From a virus: a stretch of DNA of 64,000 nucleotides. Positions within the stretch are counted from its first letter, which is position 1; each line of letters starts with the position of its first letter. The stretch is from the IMG/VR virus record IMGVR_UViG_3300045988_091582. One strand, 5' to 3'. The translations under genes were made by a program, and so were the position numbers. The notes under the pieces are model-generated. The model searched no databases. It was not told the origin of the DNA and was given only the letters and a program-made list of their open reading frames with translations. Positions 18,097 to 56,517 of the stretch are shown piece by piece.

Positions 18097-18114
18097 TTCT
18101 GTAAAGTTCATATA

Positions 18115-18150
18115 TATTGTTGGCAACTAGCAGACAATTAGTTGCATTTG
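18115..18150 (+). promoter_or_regulatory. conserved hairpin element abutting tRNA-Arg
   Basis: ATATTGTTGGCAACTAGCAGACAATTAGTTGCATTTGG with GCAACTA/TAGTTGC stem; near-identical copy at 20636-20674 abuts tRNA-Leu. Confidence 0.45.
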
Positions 18151-18224
18151 GTCCTATAACTCAACTGGATTAGAGTACGAATCTTCTAAATTCGATGTTA
18201 TGCGTTCGAGCCGCATTAGGACCA
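18150..18224 (+). tRNA. tRNA-Arg(TCT)
   Basis: GGTCCTA/TAGGACC acceptor; anticodon arm CGAAT-CTTCTAA-ATTCG; T arm ATGCG-TTCGAGC-CGCAT. Confidence 0.75.
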
Positions 18225-18228
18225 CACA

Positions 18229-18301
18229 TGCGGAGGCTAGAGCACCTCGCTTTCCACAATTCATAGAGAGGTTATATTGGTTCGAATCCTTTACTCCGTA
18301 C
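18229..18301 (+). tRNA. tRNA-like sequence, structure unresolved (possible pseudo-tRNA)
   Basis: GGTTCGAATCC T-loop and a TGCGGAG/CTCCGTA acceptor-like pairing, but D, anticodon and T stems do not fold canonically. Confidence 0.2.
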
Positions 18302-18324
18302 TAATATTAAAAAGATTAAGTAAT

Positions 18325-18675
18325 ATGAAAAAGATTATTTTATTAATGAGTTTTATTGTATTAACTACAATAGCTCATGCGTTTAATTATGGTTCTATCA
18401 CTATTTATCAAGATGGTGAATGGAGTGCCCCATTTTACATTAAAACCTCAGTAGTTTATAATGAATCTAGAAAAACTATTACTTTTAGTAACAATAAATG
18501 GGGTAAGATGGTATTAAAAATATATTCTTCTGAAATGAAGGATGGAGTAGAAATCCATAACTGTGGAGAGGTTAATACAGGAAGACGTTATGTTGTCTTT
18601 ATTACAGTAAGAAATAACATTCCTTATATAACTCTTAGCACTTCCGCAGATACCATGTATTCATTTGGCTTTTAA
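18325..18675 (+). CDS. small secreted protein
   Basis: Track ORF 18277..18675; likely start MKKIILLMSFIVLTTIAHA (signal peptide) at 18325. Confidence 0.5.
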   Translation: MKKIILLMSFIVLTTIAHAFNYGSITIYQDGEWSAPFYIKTSVVYNESRKTITFSNNKWGKMVLKIYSSEMKDGVEIHNCGEVNTGRRYVVFITVRNNIPYITLSTSADTMYSFGF

Positions 18676-18729
18676 GTTTCCATAATAATGTGTTAACGTT
18701 TTACTAGTTTTCGATATAAACTAGTACTT

Positions 18730-18813
18730 ACGGTAGTAGCTCAGTGGCTAGAGCATCTCTTTTTATAATAGGTCATTTCGAGAAGGTCATTGGTTCGAAT
18801 CCTTTCTACCGTA
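18730..18813 (+). tRNA. tRNA-like gene with expanded anticodon loop
   Basis: Perfect ACGGTAG/CTACCGT acceptor and D arm GCTC-AGTGGCTA-GAGC; anticodon stem TCTC/GAGA encloses a ~20-nt loop; T stem carries two T-T mismatches. Confidence 0.35.
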
Positions 18814-18914
18814 CAAATTTAATTAATATATTGTTAATGTGTATAAATCCTAACTAATAAATCTATTAGTATAGGTAGGTGTTACCACTATTCTCCTTAC
18901 AGAAATGTGGGCTA

Positions 18915-18995
18915 TGCAAGGGTGCTTGAATGGTTAAAAGAAACTCCCCGATTTCTAAAGATGGGATATAATGTTGGTCCGAATCCAACCCCTTG
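18915..18995 (+). tRNA. tRNA-like gene, anticodon arm non-canonical
   Basis: GCAAGGG/CCCTTGC acceptor and T arm GTTGG-TCCGAAT-CCAAC; middle region does not give a 5-bp stem with 7-nt loop. Confidence 0.35.
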
Positions 18996-19169
18996 CACAA
19001 AATAAGATTATAAATTAGCTCTCTAAGCTTTAAGGTGAAGCACGAACCTTTTAAGTTCGGGAAGACAGGTCAGTACTGTCAGGGAGCACTATTAATTTTT
19101 AAGTTATTAAAAGTATTATTCATTTTAAAGTTGTTAAAAGTATTCATTTGTAATACACTAGATTCTCGA

Positions 19170-19184
19170 TCTGTGATAGATAGG
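19170..19184 (+). repeat. TCTGTGATAGATAGG motif, copy 3 (abuts tRNA)
   Basis: Exact 15-mer; its last two G are positions 1-2 of the tRNA-like gene at 19183. Confidence 0.6.
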
Positions 19185-19277
19185 CACTATCGTCTAGCTG
19201 GTTAAGACGCTACTTATTTAAAAGATATTATATTAAACTAAGTGGAAAGGCGATTTCGAGCATCGCTAGTGCTACCA
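19183..19277 (+). tRNA. tRNA-like gene with encoded CCA and 22-nt anticodon loop
   Basis: GGCACTA/TAGTGCT acceptor + A + CCA; D arm GTCT..AGAC; T arm GCGAT-TTCGAGC-ATCGC; anticodon stem CTACTTA/TAAGTGG encloses TTTAAAAGATATTATATTAAAC. Confidence 0.4.
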
Positions 19278-19365
19278 TTTCATTTTTTTATAAAACTAAT
19301 ACGATTAATGTTTGAAATATAAAGTTAGTGGACTTTATAACGTTAAAGAGTTGTTAGGCTTCTGG

Positions 19366-19379
19366 TCTGTGAAGATAGG
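19366..19379 (+). repeat. TCTGTGAAGATAGG motif variant, copy 4 (upstream of tRNA)
   Basis: One indel relative to the 15-mer; 9 nt upstream of the tRNA-Ser-like gene. Confidence 0.5.
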
Positions 19380-19388
19380 AAGCTTTAT

Positions 19389-19466
19389 GGAGAAATGACT
19401 GAGTGGCACCCTGCTAAGGTGTTAGTCATATTATGTGGCTCGAAGGTTCGAATCCTTCTTTCTCCG
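19389..19466 (+). tRNA. tRNA-Ser(GCT)-like, short D region
   Basis: GGAGAAA/TTTCTCC acceptor; anticodon arm CACC-CTGCTAA-GGTG (GCU); long variable arm; T arm GAAGG-TTCGAAT-CCTTC; only ~9 nt where the D arm should be. Confidence 0.45.
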
Positions 19467-19481
19467 CTTTATTAGATATCT

Positions 19482-19553
19482 GGGATATTGGTGTAACGAC
19501 AGCCACGTTGGGATTTGACCCCAAAAGAAGAGGTTTGACTCCTCTATATCCTT
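19482..19553 (+). tRNA. tRNA-Gln(TTG)
   Basis: GGGATAT/ATATCCT acceptor; anticodon arm TTGGG-ATTTGAC-CCCAA; T arm AGAGG-TTTGACT-CCTCT. Confidence 0.65.
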
Positions 19554-19575
19554 CTAATTTTAACAGGTGACTTAC

Positions 19576-19660
19576 GGTGTGGGAACCGTCATCTACGAGG
19601 GGTTAGATTGGTGAATAGCTCGTACGGGAATAAGCCTAAGGAGTTCGAATCTCTACACCT
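19576..19660 (+). tRNA. tRNA-like gene, fold unresolved
   Basis: GGTGTGG/CTACACC acceptor pairing (7/7) and GAGTTCGAATCTC T-loop; internal TACGAG/CTCGTA stem encloses a ~19-nt loop. Confidence 0.3.
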
Positions 19661-19849
19661 GACAATTTAATAGGTACTAAACAACTCTCAGTGATTCTAT
19701 TAAATAGCGTAATTACCTTAAAATTAATCATTTGGGTTAAAAAGAGAAAGAACGTTAGATAGCTGAGGACAATGGAATAGTTTAAATATAACCAGTGAAA
19801 ATTGCCTATTATTTAAATAGATTATTAACACATTAATTATAGATAAATT

Positions 19850-20239
19850 ATGACAAGACAAGATTATTTTATTAGTAAAACCAATTTAATAGCACAAATA
19901 GAAAGTGCTAAGAAATTTGGTTGTAAAAATGTACTCAAGTGTGCAAAATTAAACTTAGCTGAACTTGAAAAGAAGTATAAAGAAGAACATCTTTCTAATC
20001 CTCTGTTCAGTTACATGGTAACTGAGGAAGAAATGGATGAGCTTATTAGAAATGATGAAAAGCCTACATTTAAAATCAAAGTAACTTTTAAAAGTGGAGA
20101 AGCTTATGATTTAATGTTTTACCATGAACTTAAAAGTGGAGTTAAACATTCTGATGTTGTGAAATGGGCGATGAAAGGATTAATTAAAACTATTTATCAT
20201 CCTGAAAATATTGTAGATGCTCGTTTTATTATGGGTTAA
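19850..20239 (+). CDS. hypothetical protein
   Basis: Track ORF 129 aa. Confidence 0.45.
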   Translation: MTRQDYFISKTNLIAQIESAKKFGCKNVLKCAKLNLAELEKKYKEEHLSNPLFSYMVTEEEMDELIRNDEKPTFKIKVTFKSGEAYDLMFYHELKSGVKHSDVVKWAMKGLIKTIYHPENIVDARFIMG

Positions 20240-20635: not shown

Positions 20636-20674
20636 ATATTGTTGGCAACTAGCAGATAATTAGTTGCTATTTGG
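20636..20674 (+). promoter_or_regulatory. conserved hairpin element abutting tRNA-Leu
   Basis: ATATTGTTGGCAACTAGCAGATAATTAGTTGCTATTTGG; second copy of the 18115 element. Confidence 0.45.
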
Positions 20675-20756
20675 CTCAGTATCCGAATTGGTATAGGAGA
20701 TGGTCTTAAACACCATTGGACATGTGTCCGTACGGGTTCGAGTCCCGTCTGAGCTA
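20673..20756 (+). tRNA. tRNA-Leu(TAA), type II
   Basis: GGCTCAG/CTGAGCT acceptor; anticodon arm ATGGT-CTTAAAC-ACCAT; variable arm GGACA..TGTCC; T arm ACGGG-TTCGAGT-CCCGT. Confidence 0.75.
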
Positions 20757-20944
20757 CATAATTGATTATTTATTATGTTTTGAAAAATTAAAATCATTCA
20801 TAATTACTGTGAATTTGTGAAAATTTATAAGTAATGTAAAATTTTCGTTTTGTAGAAGATTTTATCTTTCTTTTAAACTCATATTGCTTGTGAAAGTAGT
20901 ATGAGTTTTTAAATAAGGCTATATAGCAATACTAGTATAAATAG

Positions 20945-21017
20945 AAATGTGTAGCTTAAAGCGGTAGAGCACTGACTAGGTAACCAGAGGTTGGCAGTTC
21001 GAGTCTGTCCGCATTTC
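20945..21017 (+). tRNA. tRNA-like gene, anticodon arm unresolved
   Basis: AAATGTG/CGCATTT acceptor; D arm GCTT..GAGC; T arm GGCAG-TTCGAGT-CTGTC; 17 nt between do not form a canonical arm. Confidence 0.35.
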
Positions 21018-21211
21018 CTTTTTCTATCATAAATTTTAATTTTTAAGTTATTAAAAATAAAAGAGTTTTGCTTGTGAAAGTAGAATTTTTTATCAAAATC
21101 AAAATGTGAAAACTTTAATAAGTCGGAGGACTTACAAAACTCAAAAAAGTGTGTCTTAGTGGCAGCTAGCAAGTAGGGAGGAGAGAATTAACGACTCTCA
21201 GACACATCTTC

Positions 21212-36107: not shown

Positions 36108-36188
36108 GTCTAGATAGCCAAGTGGTCAACGGCAGCAAGCTGTTAACTTGCCCCGAAAGGTTCCTAGGTTCGAATCCTAGTCTAGGCG
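36108..36188 (+). tRNA. tRNA-like gene, anticodon GTT with long variable region
   Basis: GTCTAGA/TCTAGGC acceptor; D arm GCC..GGC; anticodon arm GCAAG-CTGTTAA-CTTGC; T arm CTAGG-TTCGAAT-CCTAG; 12-nt variable region is unusual for a GUU anticodon. Confidence 0.45.
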
Positions 36189-36200
36189 CAATAAACATAT

Positions 36201-36271
36201 GGAGTATTAAGCCCTGTTGGTAAGGGAACTAGACTGTCACTCTAGTAAAACTAAGGGTCCCTTATATTCCG
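36201..36271 (+). tRNA. tRNA-Asp(GTC)-like, no canonical T arm
   Basis: GGAGTAT/ATATTCC acceptor; anticodon arm CTAGA-CTGTCAC-TCTAG; T region replaced by a short AAGG-GTC-CCTT hairpin. Confidence 0.35.
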
Positions 36272-36404
36272 CAAATAATGGAGAGCACCTAGTTGTTAAC
36301 TGGGTGGTTGTTAGAGGTAGCGGTGGCAGCCTGATAGCTCAATGTATTATTAGAATATGGTCACGATAGTTTGCCCGTCTAATGCCATATTCGCCTTTAT
36401 TCTA

Positions 36405-36476: not shown

Positions 36477-36656
36477 CTCTAATTTAACATGGAGCATGTA
36501 CCAAAGCAGTATCTTAACTCAAGGGGCATTGAAAAGAGAGGTAACGTTACTCATAATATAGTCATGTCGAAGGTTGAGAGAACCTTATAAAAAGTCATCG
36601 ATAGATGGTACTGAAAGACTTTGCTTCGCCGAAAATTCTTTAAAACAACATATATC

Positions 36657-36725
36657 GCGGATGTGGTGTAATGGTAACATGCTAGGCTCATAACCTAGAG
36701 TAGTCGTTCAAATCGAACATCCGCA
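36657..36725 (+). tRNA. tRNA-Met/Ile(CAT)
   Basis: GCGGATG/CATCCGC acceptor; anticodon arm CTAGG-CTCATAA-CCTAG; T loop TTCAAAT with a weak 3-bp stem. Confidence 0.6.
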
Positions 36726-36787
36726 AGATTCACATAGTAAGAACCTCCACGTGGTGTGAATTGGGTAATGCTAATCTTACTAAAAAT

Positions 36788-36871
36788 TATCTAGTATGTG
36801 AAGTGGTCAAACACAACAAACTGTAAATTTGTCGCTATTTAGCTTCGGGAGTTCGAATCTCTCCTAGACAA
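36788..36871 (+). tRNA. tRNA-Tyr(GTA), type II
   Basis: TATCTAG/CTAGACA acceptor (one A-C mismatch); D arm TGTG..CACA; anticodon arm ACAAA-CTGTAAA-TTTGT; long variable arm; T arm GGGAG-TTCGAAT-CTCTC. Confidence 0.55.
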
Positions 36872-36891
36872 CTAATTAAAAAATAAATAAT

Positions 36892-55358: not shown

Positions 55359-55404
55359 ATAATATATAAAATTAATACATTCTAAGAATCCTGATTTATA
55401 GTGT

Positions 55405-56517
55405 ATGACAGAGTACACAGGAGCTAAATGTATTATGACTGTACAATGTAAAATATGTGGAAATATATTTAAAAGAAGAGCAGATTCTCTAAAAATAAAC
55501 TGTACTTGCCCAACTTGCAGTAAATTAGCTAAATTAGATAAAACTAAAAATAAATTTTTAGATTATATTCGGCTACATAACATTAAGTTAATAGGAACTT
55601 ATATAGATACAAAGTCTAAGATAAAATATAAGTGTTTAAAATGTGGTTATGTATGGAGCACCACTCCAGAATCAATAATGCAAGAACATGGTTGTGCAAA
55701 ATGTGCTTCTCATATAAGTTATAAATTGACTACAGAAGATTTTATAGAAAAAGCCAAACAAGTGCAATAGGGCAATTACGATTATTCAAATACAAAGTAT
55801 ACTGTAGCTAATGCAAAATTAACAATAGGTTGCCCTAGACATGGTTTATTTGAAATTTTTCCAAATAATTTTATAAGAAGAGGTATATGTCCAAAATGCA
55901 GCATCGAATAGCGCGCTTCAAATAGAAGATTATCTATTAAAGATTTTGTAGAAAAAGCTCGGCGAGTTCATGGAAACAAGTATGATTATAGTAAAGTAAA
56001 ATACTTTAATAGACAAACAAAAGTATCCATAATATGTCCTACACATGGGGAATTTATGCAAACTCCTGCACACCATTTAAAAGGTTGTGGATGTTAGAAA
56101 TGCAGTTAGTCACATGGAGAAAATTTTGTGGAACAATATTTATAGTCTAAAAATATTTTATTTCAATAGTAGTACGTTGTACATGTTCCTGAAAATATTA
56201 GAAGTTCAGGGAAAATATATGTTGATTTTTATATAAGATCTTTAAACACAATTATTGAATATAATGGTAAACAACATTATATTCCTATAAAACATTTTGG
56301 AGGATAGTTAGCATTTGATTCTTAGAAAAAACGTGATAACTATTTACGGCGATATTGTTTGGATAATAAAATTAGATTAATTGAATTACCTGAGGGAATA
56401 AGTTTTGATATATTGCGAGATTATCTAGATACTTATTTAATAGATAGCCTCCAACAATGGTTCCTATGGATTTCTTTTATACTTTATTAGAATGTTATTC
56501 TAAAAGTAATAATTTAA
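55405..56517 (+). CDS. homing-endonuclease-like protein (Zn-ribbon repeats + DUF559/Vsr-like PD-(D/E)xK), TAG-recoded
   Basis: Track ORF 55405..55770 continues in frame to TAA 56515-56517 through ~10 TAG; repeated KYDYSKVKY..IICP.HGEF..GCGC modules; YVDFYI...IEYNGKQHY nuclease motif. Confidence 0.55.

Follow-up and report, generated by a model that had tools for sequence, protein, structure and literature searches.

Bacterial group I introns with homing-endonuclease genes are found in the anticodon loops of transfer RNA (tRNA) genes, as in cyanobacterial tRNA-Leu(UAA) and Azoarcus tRNA-Ile, and free-standing homing endonucleases are present in phage tRNA clusters, such as SegB of T4 and the HNH enzymes of T5. 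In the Prevotella Lak phages, the tRNAs bear "enigmatic", highly conserved introns of 79-141 nucleotides (nt) that are inserted after nt 37 and are themselves tRNA-like, and 'Pseudo', 'Sup' and 'Undet' tRNAs are listed for these phages (Devoto et al. 2019, PMC6784885). Additionally, theta ribozymes, a minimal form of the ribozymes that resemble that of hepatitis delta virus (HDV), adjoin the tRNAs of recoding gut phages (Kienbeck et al. 2024, PMC10879173). Here, we describe a tRNA array at positions 18,229 to 19,660 of a viral DNA stretch of 64,000 nt (IMG/VR record IMGVR_UViG_3300045988_091582, the whole of which is termed the window), in which canonical tRNA genes occur together with members that have oversized anticodon loops or missing arms. 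With moderate confidence, we favor the reading that the array is a cluster of a Lak-type, TAG-recoding megaphage in which expendable tRNA genes are being eroded, and that two processes, small deletions inside tRNA arms and the invasion of anticodon loops by mobile intervening sequences, explain most of the odd members.

The closest records, together with in-frame TAG codons and the confinement of TAA and TGA to the ends of open reading frames (ORFs), indicate that the source of the window is a Lak-like, TAG-recoding Prevotella megaphage in which TAA and TGA are not recoded. The G+C content of the window is 29.6%. An unannotated phage scaffold from the human gut (MT835539, locus L001) shares 85% identity with the region 18100-19700, and 19489-19700 is 77% identical to the Prevotella phages Lak-A1, Lak-A2 and Lak-C1. 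Many in-frame TAG codons are present in the genes at 1158-9801 and 55363-56517, including 48 within one 952-codon ORF, and in-frame TAA or TGA is observed in the window ORFs only at their ends. TAG recoding is limited to these gene blocks and the remainder of the window uses the standard code; regional TAG use is likewise seen in Lak phages (PMC6784885). Small ORFs are interleaved among the tRNA arrays. For the comparisons, related loci were drawn from a phage collection, IMG/VR and metagenomes, which gave approximately 40 genomes for the main array, and the Rfam tRNA model RF00005 was used with its gathering threshold of 29 bits, "no hit" denoting none at E<=10.

A comparison with the Lak phages indicates that the array is the phenomenon known from Lak, in a sister clade. 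The two share their lineage, TAG recoding, large tRNA arrays and insertions in or near the anticodon loop, in addition to a 91-nt tRNA-Trp(CCA) (in the relative L001) and tRNAs that tRNAscan labels Pseudo or Undet (PMC6784885). A difference lies in the inserts: the Lak introns contain a hairpin plus a tRNA-like acceptor/T-arm minihelix, and only some genomes carry them (PMC6784885), whereas the inserts described here are 8-26 nt long, have no internal structure and are either fixed in the clade (families A and B) or a deletion stub (the Glu gene). The Glu insert is polymorphic among genomes, but its removal in the window was imprecise. Three features are not described in PMC6784885, namely 8-12-nt inserts that are fixed in two paralogs, a ribozyme-free endonuclease gene inside an anticodon loop along with its deletion stub, and covariation showing that two tRNA-like families are maintained as structures.

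The related genomes show that the odd members are of four kinds: micro-deletion alleles, a mobile-element scar, the insert-bearing paralogs A and B, and the tRNA-like RNAs C and D. These members and the two canonical genes needed to place them are as follows, with the evidence for each in brackets.

18150-18225, + strand: canonical tRNA-Arg(UCU), which opens the array (ARAGORN; Rfam tRNA 59.5 bits)
18230-18300, + strand: family A, Gly(UCC)-type, with a 9-nt insert AATTCATAG 3' of the anticodon loop (alignment with L001)
18730-18814, + strand: family B, with stem (A)TCTC/GAGA(A) and loop TAT/TTA plus a 10-12-nt insert AGGTCATTTC (Rfam 51 bits; A/B alignment)
18916-18998, + strand: degenerate tRNA-like gene with an 8-nt loop CTCCCCGA (ARAGORN at lowered threshold only)
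19018-19089, + strand: tRNA-Lys(UUU) with the non-canonical T loop GTCAGTA (ARAGORN -ps; no Rfam match)
19183-19277, + strand: tRNA-Glu(UUC), the 26-nt anticodon loop of which (19215-19240) is read as an insertion remnant (comparison with relatives)
19389-19466, + strand: tRNA-Ser(GCU) without 10 nt of the D arm, deleted between AGTGG direct repeats (Rfam 43 bits; relatives)
19482-19554, + strand: canonical tRNA-Gln(UUG), the constant upstream neighbor of family D (ARAGORN and Rfam; adjacency in 13 of 14 genomes)
19564-19662, + strand: family D, tRNA-like RNA with acceptor, D and T arms and a variable region of approximately 30 nt (RNAalifold; pair counts)
20945-21018, + strand: family C, tRNA-like RNA that ARAGORN calls a tRNA with a '4-base anticodon (aggt)' (alignment; covariation)
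36201-36271, + strand: tRNA-Asp(GUC), the T loop of which is lost through a deletion of 6 nt, TTCGAG (relatives; Rfam 21 bits)

A sequence-only reading of the array had parsed Arg and Gln, as well as Leu, Met, Thr, Tyr and Ala of the other arrays, as canonical tRNAs, and ARAGORN and Rfam concur. Its manual parses of the odd members also stand, in that the covariance models do not fold these members as ordinary tRNAs: the Rfam tRNA threshold is reached by 18730 (51 bits) and 19389 (43 bits), and 18230, 18916, 19018, 19183 and 19564 have no hit. Three odd members were overlooked in that reading, 18916-18998 with its 8-nt loop, Lys(UUU) at 19018-19089 with its odd T loop, and 20945-21018, and the extent of the first odd element is corrected to 18230-18300. 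A 7-nt anticodon loop with U33, a purine at position 37 and a 5-base-pair (bp) stem is present in 19018, 19389 and 36201, and is lacking in family A (including 18230), 18730, 18916, 19183 and families C and D. Complete D and T arms are kept in 18730, 19183 and 19564; compared with the respective orthologs, 18230 and 19389 have a truncated D arm and 36201 has lost its T loop.

In the Glu gene at 19183-19277, the good acceptor, D and T arms and the encoded CCA of the first parse are borne out, although the loop, enclosed by the stem CTACT/AGTGG, comprises 26 nt and not 20-22. The encoded CCA is not conserved among the relatives. An ordinary Glu(UUC) gene of 73-74 nt is found at this locus in 38 of the 40 genomes, and the gene has four anticodon-stem alleles that are linked by compensatory changes, one of which is CCACT/GGTGG. 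In the genome L016, the gene consists of CCACT, an insertion of approximately 750 nt and AGTGG; the insertion starts with TATTTAAAAGATATTATATTAAAC and finishes with ...AAATA. The 26-nt loop of the window exactly matches the 24 nt that open this insertion joined to the 2 nt that close it, and approximately 726 nt, the whole ORF included, are deleted from the window copy relative to L016. The window is the only place in which the 19183 allele is found, and L016 represents its parent form.

The L016 insertion is nearly filled by an ORF of 235 codons, with approximately 45 nt ahead of it and none behind, which contains the HNH motif HHINGKHDDNRLENLQILCPNCH. The Pfam HNH score of this ORF is 19.3 bits, below the cut-off of 21.4, but it is 40% identical (E=4e-29) to an HNH ORF of L028 that scores 24.1 bits, above the cut-off, and that sits inside an insertion in a tRNA-Leu gene. 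The in-frame TAG of the L016 ORF is aligned with a Gln of the L028 protein. No Rfam ribozyme, including Intron_gpI, is detected in the L016 insertion at E<=10, and the insertion leaves no room for one. We read 19183 as a Glu gene that was disrupted by a homing-endonuclease gene without a ribozyme core, one case of the mobile intervening sequences that would invade anticodon loops, and in which an imprecise scar was then left. The minimum-free-energy fold of the region is one long hairpin, and the 26-nt stub would turn the Glu anticodon arm into a hairpin that is unable to decode. The locus offers a direct before-and-after picture of the entry of an endonuclease gene into an anticodon loop and of its imprecise loss, and the "enigmatic" insertions of megaphage tRNAs could have originated by this concrete route, among others.

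The mobile HNH gene within the L016 anticodon loop resembles the group I introns mentioned above, as do the insertions in the Leu(UAA) genes of relatives, which lie at the classic site of such introns. However, neither the L016 Glu insertion nor the Leu insertions have an Rfam group I match, and the window keeps only the 26-nt remnant. As for the enzymes of T4 and T5, the endonuclease genes are tied to tRNA regions of phages, where gene conversion or damage of the locality would be expected; the genes of T4 and T5 lie between tRNA genes, whereas that of L016 lies inside the anticodon loop.

The related genomes contain further insertions of this sort. Insertions of 476-850 nt are present after U34 of tRNA-Leu(UAA) in several relatives (L021 13288-13944, L007 431-993, L028 3593-4397 and others), a position that we take to be the classic site of the cyanobacterial group I intron. 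Some of these insertions hold an HNH ORF, and the Rfam group I model does not match them; a search for group I and other ribozymes in the L016 Glu and L021 Leu(UAA) insertions gave no Rfam hit. Inserts of approximately 580 nt in the Phe(GAA) genes of relatives likewise have no match to the group I model. The Leu(UAA) gene of the window (20673-20757) contains no insert.

The second process consists of deletions of 6-14 nt inside tRNA arms, several of them between direct repeats of 5-8 nt, which would leave crippled alleles in circulation at low frequency, namely Ser(GCU), Asp(GUC), the Gly-type gene of the window and 18916. In most genomes, Ser(GCU) is a class II tRNA of 88 nt, and the initial parse of 19389-19466 as this tRNA with a reduced D arm is supported by its Rfam score. 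The D-arm deletion of the window is identical in L025. Small deletions are observed in 8 of the 28 distinct Ser sequences, the T arm having lost 8 nt between TCGAA repeats, or the variable arm 7-13 nt, in other genomes, and two recurring Ser deletions are flanked by AGTGG or TCGAA repeats. At 36201-36271, the perfect Asp(GUC) anticodon arm and the collapsed T arm noted earlier are both evident, and the score falls below the Rfam threshold; most relatives (approximately 25 distinct sequences) have an intact 77-nt gene with the T arm AAGGG TTCGAGT CCCTT. The loss of TTCGAG is common to the window and L162, and L210 has a similar defect. The position of 18916 is occupied in L001 by a 91-nt class-II-like tRNA-Trp(CCA), and a 91-nt Trp(CCA) is also listed for Lak phages (PMC6784885); L113 and L030 are the only other genomes with the degenerate form.

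Three deletions, those of the Ser D arm, the Ser T arm (in relatives) and 14 nt of a family B copy (L012), lie between direct repeats of 5-8 nt. The suggestion that the odd members could be pseudogenes is well supported for 18230 (a defect of the window only), 19389, 36201 and 19183: each is a derived allele, rare or unique, and most relatives have the gene in intact form. These damaged alleles are probably dead or dying, and they may be tolerated since the host and redundant phage genes would supply the same tRNAs. Breaks made by HNH enzymes that target tRNAs, with repair by way of short homologies, may be a common cause, although this is speculation. The Lys(UUU) gene at 19018-19089 is conserved and is likely to be functional: the gene with the odd T loop is present in 16 distinct sequences from relatives, and its anticodon stem covaries (CGAAC/GTTCG, CGAAA/TTTCG, CAAAA/TTTTG).

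Families C and D are of a different kind. Family D is found in 14 genomes, including Lak-A1 and Lak-C1, as a single copy per genome (model R1), and it lies 5-10 nt 3' of tRNA-Gln(UUG) in 13 of the 14. The consensus structure contains an acceptor stem of 5-6 bp, a D stem of 5 bp with a GG-containing loop and a T stem of 4 bp. In place of the anticodon loop there is a TCTA/TAGA hairpin with a G-rich loop of 6-14 nt, and a 3-bp helix closes a variable region of approximately 24 nt. The consensus pairs are 100% paired and five of them show double changes, a result that is matched by at most 1 of 500 shuffles. The first parse correctly saw a tRNA-shaped element with a paired acceptor here, although its true span is 19564-19662 and its acceptor is CAGGTG/CACCTG; the internal stem TACGAG/CTCGTA proposed for it is specific to the window, and other stems covary across genomes. 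Neither ARAGORN nor Rfam at E<=10 called 19564-19662 as a tRNA.

Several identities were considered for family D and set aside. ARAGORN and Rfam were negative for a transfer-messenger RNA (tmRNA) or a permuted tmRNA. A disguised amber suppressor was rejected, the CTA being within a covarying stem and the loop varying from 6 to 14 nt. Kinship with the tRNA-like introns of Lak was also rejected, as model R1, built on family D, finds only D itself in L002 and L003 and does not match the intron-bearing Lak tRNAs there.

Downstream of family D, a 185-nt non-coding block (19666-19850, + strand) extends to the next ORF. It is 94-98% identical in every relative, Lak-A1 and Lak-C1 included, and is far more conserved than the adjoining tRNAs, and it has no Rfam match. 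The block is present without the D RNA in L001, and the D RNA is present without the block in L007 and L009.

Model R2 gives at least 80 bits in 27 genomes, in which family C is a single-copy element. There is almost no variation in the acceptor, D and T arms, and the loop consists of 5-8 nt whose sequence is unrelated between genomes. All five pairs of the 'anticodon' stem show double changes, 98.4% of the alignment cells are paired and 32 are double-change cells, which is matched by none of 500 shuffles. In the window copy, this stem is only 3 bp long.

The covariation indicates that selection on the RNAs of families C and D is for shape and not for an anticodon, and, judged from their structure, D is not a decoder and the loops of both families cannot decode. 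Selection would keep C and D folded while the length and sequence of the loop vary freely. Because the acceptor, T and D arms are kept and the loops vary, a role as processing signals or in protein binding is favored over decoding: C and D, and possibly A and B, may act through their acceptor/T/D architecture as substrates or signals for the tRNA-processing enzymes that act on the array transcripts, or as ligands of proteins that recognize tRNAs; arms conserved in this way would be needed for recognition by RNase P, by RNase Z, by the CCA-adding enzyme or by further proteins that bind tRNAs. A decoy function or another non-decoding role is possible for 19564 and 20945.

An extension of this idea to the whole array, in which the odd members are deliberate non-decoding tRNA mimics, is possible but unlikely. 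Such mimics could be decoys for host anticodon nucleases or other defenses that target tRNAs, or RNase P/Z 'punctuation' that frees the neighboring small messenger RNAs and tRNAs from the array transcripts. The arms that C and D keep, their covarying 'anticodon' stem with a loop of 5-14 nt and the fixed position of D beside tRNA-Gln would suit this role, as would the small ORFs among the arrays, and the candidate HDV-like ribozyme that abuts tRNA-Met at 36727 suggests that processing of the arrays is elaborate. However, the deletion alleles of Ser, Asp and A lose exactly the arms that would be required, and mimicry therefore cannot explain these alleles of the window. Moreover, the conservation of A and B does not exceed that of the adjoining spacers.

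The T-arm block reported as common to 18268-18303 and 18783-18815 is real, and the two genes that contain it, those of families A and B, are paralogs. The D arm is common to both families, as is the T arm, ATTGG-TTCGAAT-CCTTT, and three pairs of the acceptor stem distinguish them, each of which is changed on both strands. The two U·U pairs of this T arm are also found in many ordinary metagenome tRNAs; a scan of metagenomes with the T-arm word returned mostly unrelated tRNAs, since ATTGGTTCGAATCCTTT is frequent in ordinary tRNAs as well, many of them with a Met (CAT) anticodon. A and B were sought beyond the clade, and in the phage collection only MT835539 was found; both families are restricted to the clade. 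Orthology of B with canonical Ile(UAU) or with the Lak tRNA(UUA) was not seen in the comparison.

Family A comprises 24 copies (16 distinct) with an anticodon loop of 16-17 nt. All copies except that of the window are 81-82 nt long with an intact D arm, whereas the window copy is a degenerate allele in which 11 nt of the D arm (TTAGCTTAATG, 5' half) are missing and A31 is changed to G; the L001 copy scores 46.6 bits with the Rfam tRNA model, and the window copy has no hit. Family B comprises 25 copies (11 distinct), in which the stem encloses 17-20 nt, and the window allele is widespread. The earlier description of the 18730 loop is accurate, the stem TCTC/GAGA enclosing 20 nt, and the match of 51 bits requires a 15-nt insertion to be placed in the anticodon loop. 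In B, the T-run ahead of the anticodon is 3, 4 or 5 nt long, a D-stem pair is broken in three alleles, the L056 copy contains indels, and the L012 copy has lost 14 nt between AGGTCATT repeats, a deletion that removes part of the stem too. On these alignments, family A looks like a working gene and B looks less constrained.

The inserts of the two families (A, AATTCATAGA; B, AGGTCATTTC) can be aligned and occupy the same site, just 5' of the 3' strand of the anticodon stem. Because the inserts are homologous at the same site, the insert is older than the A/B duplication, and it would have been inherited from a common ancestor and not result from recent damage. It is present in 24 of 24 A copies and 24 of 25 B copies, the exception being the L012 deletion allele, and no insert-free allele was found among them. 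The proposal of short intervening sequences in the sequence-only reading is correct as a description of 18730 and the 18230 family, in which this homologous insert of approximately 10 nt is fixed in the clade. The nucleotide diversity is 0.040 in A and 0.034 in B, approximately one third of the 0.122 at third codon positions of the ORF between them.

A reading of these inserts as mini-introns, in which a protein nuclease would excise the 9-26-nt inserts from the precursors of A, B and perhaps 19183 and a phage RNA ligase would join the halves to yield working Gly and Ile-like tRNAs, is doubtful. In addition to the age of the insert, its position is near that after nt 37, where the published Lak introns sit, and genes for a T4 Rnl2 homolog and a CCA-adding enzyme are known from Lak genomes, the published annotation of which lists no endonuclease (PMC6784885). 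Family A retains U33, a Gly anticodon and A37 with compensatory stem changes, and in L010 the stem CCTCT/AGAGG is perfect after the removal of 8 nt, the gene being called Gly(gcc) i(40,8) by ARAGORN. However, inspection and minimum-free-energy folds reveal no bulge-helix-bulge motif in A, B or 19183, which form an open loop or a continuous hairpin, and the 9-26-nt inserts of the window contain neither a ribozyme core nor any splicing signal that is known. The A and B inserts, which are rich in A+T, do not form a stable helix. The fixation of the insert in A and B is also unlike the presence and absence of the published Lak introns (PMC6784885). The length of the T-run before the anticodon varies in both families, and B has D-stem mismatches and the 14-nt deletion allele as well. 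By sequence inspection, no excision of 19 nt from the 19183 loop yields U33 and a Glu anticodon. To our knowledge, no protein-spliced tRNA intron exists in bacteria.

Were these less probable views correct, which we doubt, the A/B inserts and the published Lak introns would mark a ribozyme-free, protein-dependent route of tRNA splicing in a phage-bacterium system; separately, C and D would represent a new class of phage tRNA-shaped regulatory or anti-defense RNA with a loop that is free to vary, D being locked beside tRNA-Gln in a phage that reads TAG as Gln. The two tRNA-like families and the A/B insert are specific candidates, open to testing, for tRNA functions other than decoding or for a splicing route not yet known.

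Several points weigh against the preferred reading of an eroding array. In family A, the 5' half of the loop is canonical (C/U-U-NCC-A-C), the anticodons UCC, CCC (L140) and GCC (L010) are all those of Gly, and every stem substitution keeps the pairing, as would be expected of a working spliced tRNA. The adjoining non-coding spacers have diversities of 0.004-0.043, so that A and B are no more conserved than the spacers and a gene-specific constraint on them is not demonstrated. The D-arm deletion of A and the Asp deletion show just 1 nt of homology, and microhomology therefore fits only some of the deletions. Finally, the loss of function in the deletion alleles is deduced from their absent arms, and some mitochondrial tRNAs function without a D arm or a T arm.

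It is very improbable that the missing arms are artefacts of assembly or sequencing. Five rare or unique defects are many for one genome, and hairpin regions are error-prone; however, the same deletions recur in independent contigs (that of Ser in L025, that of Asp in L162 and the 18916 form in L113 and L030), which makes an assembly error unlikely. Additionally, the indels between the window and L001 cluster in tRNA genes, and the flanking ORF is aligned without a frameshift.

ARAGORN calls both 18730 and 19183 'Stop(tta)' by means of mismatched stems, with the extra bases made into a variable arm. These class-II folds were rejected since the mismatched stems are needed and the homologous stem strands lie outside the insert; in B, the L008/L054 allele lengthens the TCTC/GAGA helix. 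That the odd members are new decoders, either UAA/UAG suppressors (18730, 19183) or four-base decoders (18916 'cccc', 20945 'aggt'), is scarcely credible: the ARAGORN calls, the recoding of TAG by the phage and the canonical tRNA(UUA) of Lak phages speak for it, but the calls rely on these improvised folds, 19183 is a Glu(UUC) gene that has been disrupted, B has no relationship to the Lak tRNA(UUA) and its loop reading shifts with the length of the T-run, the loops of 18916 and 20945 are not conserved in relatives, and TAA and TGA are never read through in the window ORFs. The idea of novel decoding functions receives no support, and the 'Stop(tta)' labels are contradicted by homology, as is TAA suppression. 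Phage tRNA sets are usually counted from the output of tRNA finders, and such a count for this array combines working tRNAs, crippled alleles and look-alikes; because counts mix these classes, estimates of codon supply and of suppressor content can mislead, as the two 'Stop' tRNAs of ARAGORN illustrate.

Further elements were observed near the arrays. A sub-threshold match to the Rfam model HDV-F-prausnitzii (36727-36792, + strand; 25.6 bits, E=0.013) starts 2 nt past tRNA-Met(CAT) (36657-36725) and overlaps the first bases of the tRNA-Tyr called by ARAGORN at 36788-36872. This candidate fits the 'theta' ribozymes beside the tRNAs of recoding gut phages, and the setting is similar, with tRNA arrays of a code-15 gut phage and an HDV-like match beside a tRNA; theta ribozymes process the 3' ends of tRNAs, however, and are not tRNA mimics (PMC10879173). 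Among the odd members of the 18.2-19.7 kilobase (kb) array, no HDV-like model match was found. In related megaphages, a RAGATH-1 hammerhead ribozyme is present at L021 5649-5733 (70.6 bits, above the gathering score), and a weaker copy lies at L007 3987-4063.

A near-identical 26-nt hairpin motif, TTGGCAACTAGCAGAYAATTAGTTGC, occurs exactly twice in the window (18120-18145 and 20642-20667, + strand), each copy lying 4-5 nt ahead of the tRNA that opens an array, and zero occurrences are expected by chance; the hairpin may be a promoter, an operator or a processing signal. The position of the Arg gene at 18150-18225 is occupied in L001 (4057-4142) by an unrelated 86-nt UCU tRNA with a long variable arm, and Asn(GUU) of the window (36108-36189) is 82 nt long with an 11-nt variable region. 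Together with the 91-nt Trp(CCA), these genes suggest that a long variable arm is common in the lineage even on tRNAs that would ordinarily have none. Between the tRNAs of the 36-kb array, the stretches 36272-36404 and 36478-36656 (+ strand) appear relatively G+C-rich, with no long ORF and no Rfam match, and the start of the former is conserved after tRNA-Asp in relatives; both may be further non-coding RNAs. In unrelated environmental contigs (L040, L052, L058, L070, L078, L086 and others), tRNA-like genes with normal acceptor, D and T arms carry a 13-nt mini 'anticodon' arm, ATCCATTTATGGA, and variants of such mini-arm genes with a 13-nt loop are present in L132, L135 and L147.

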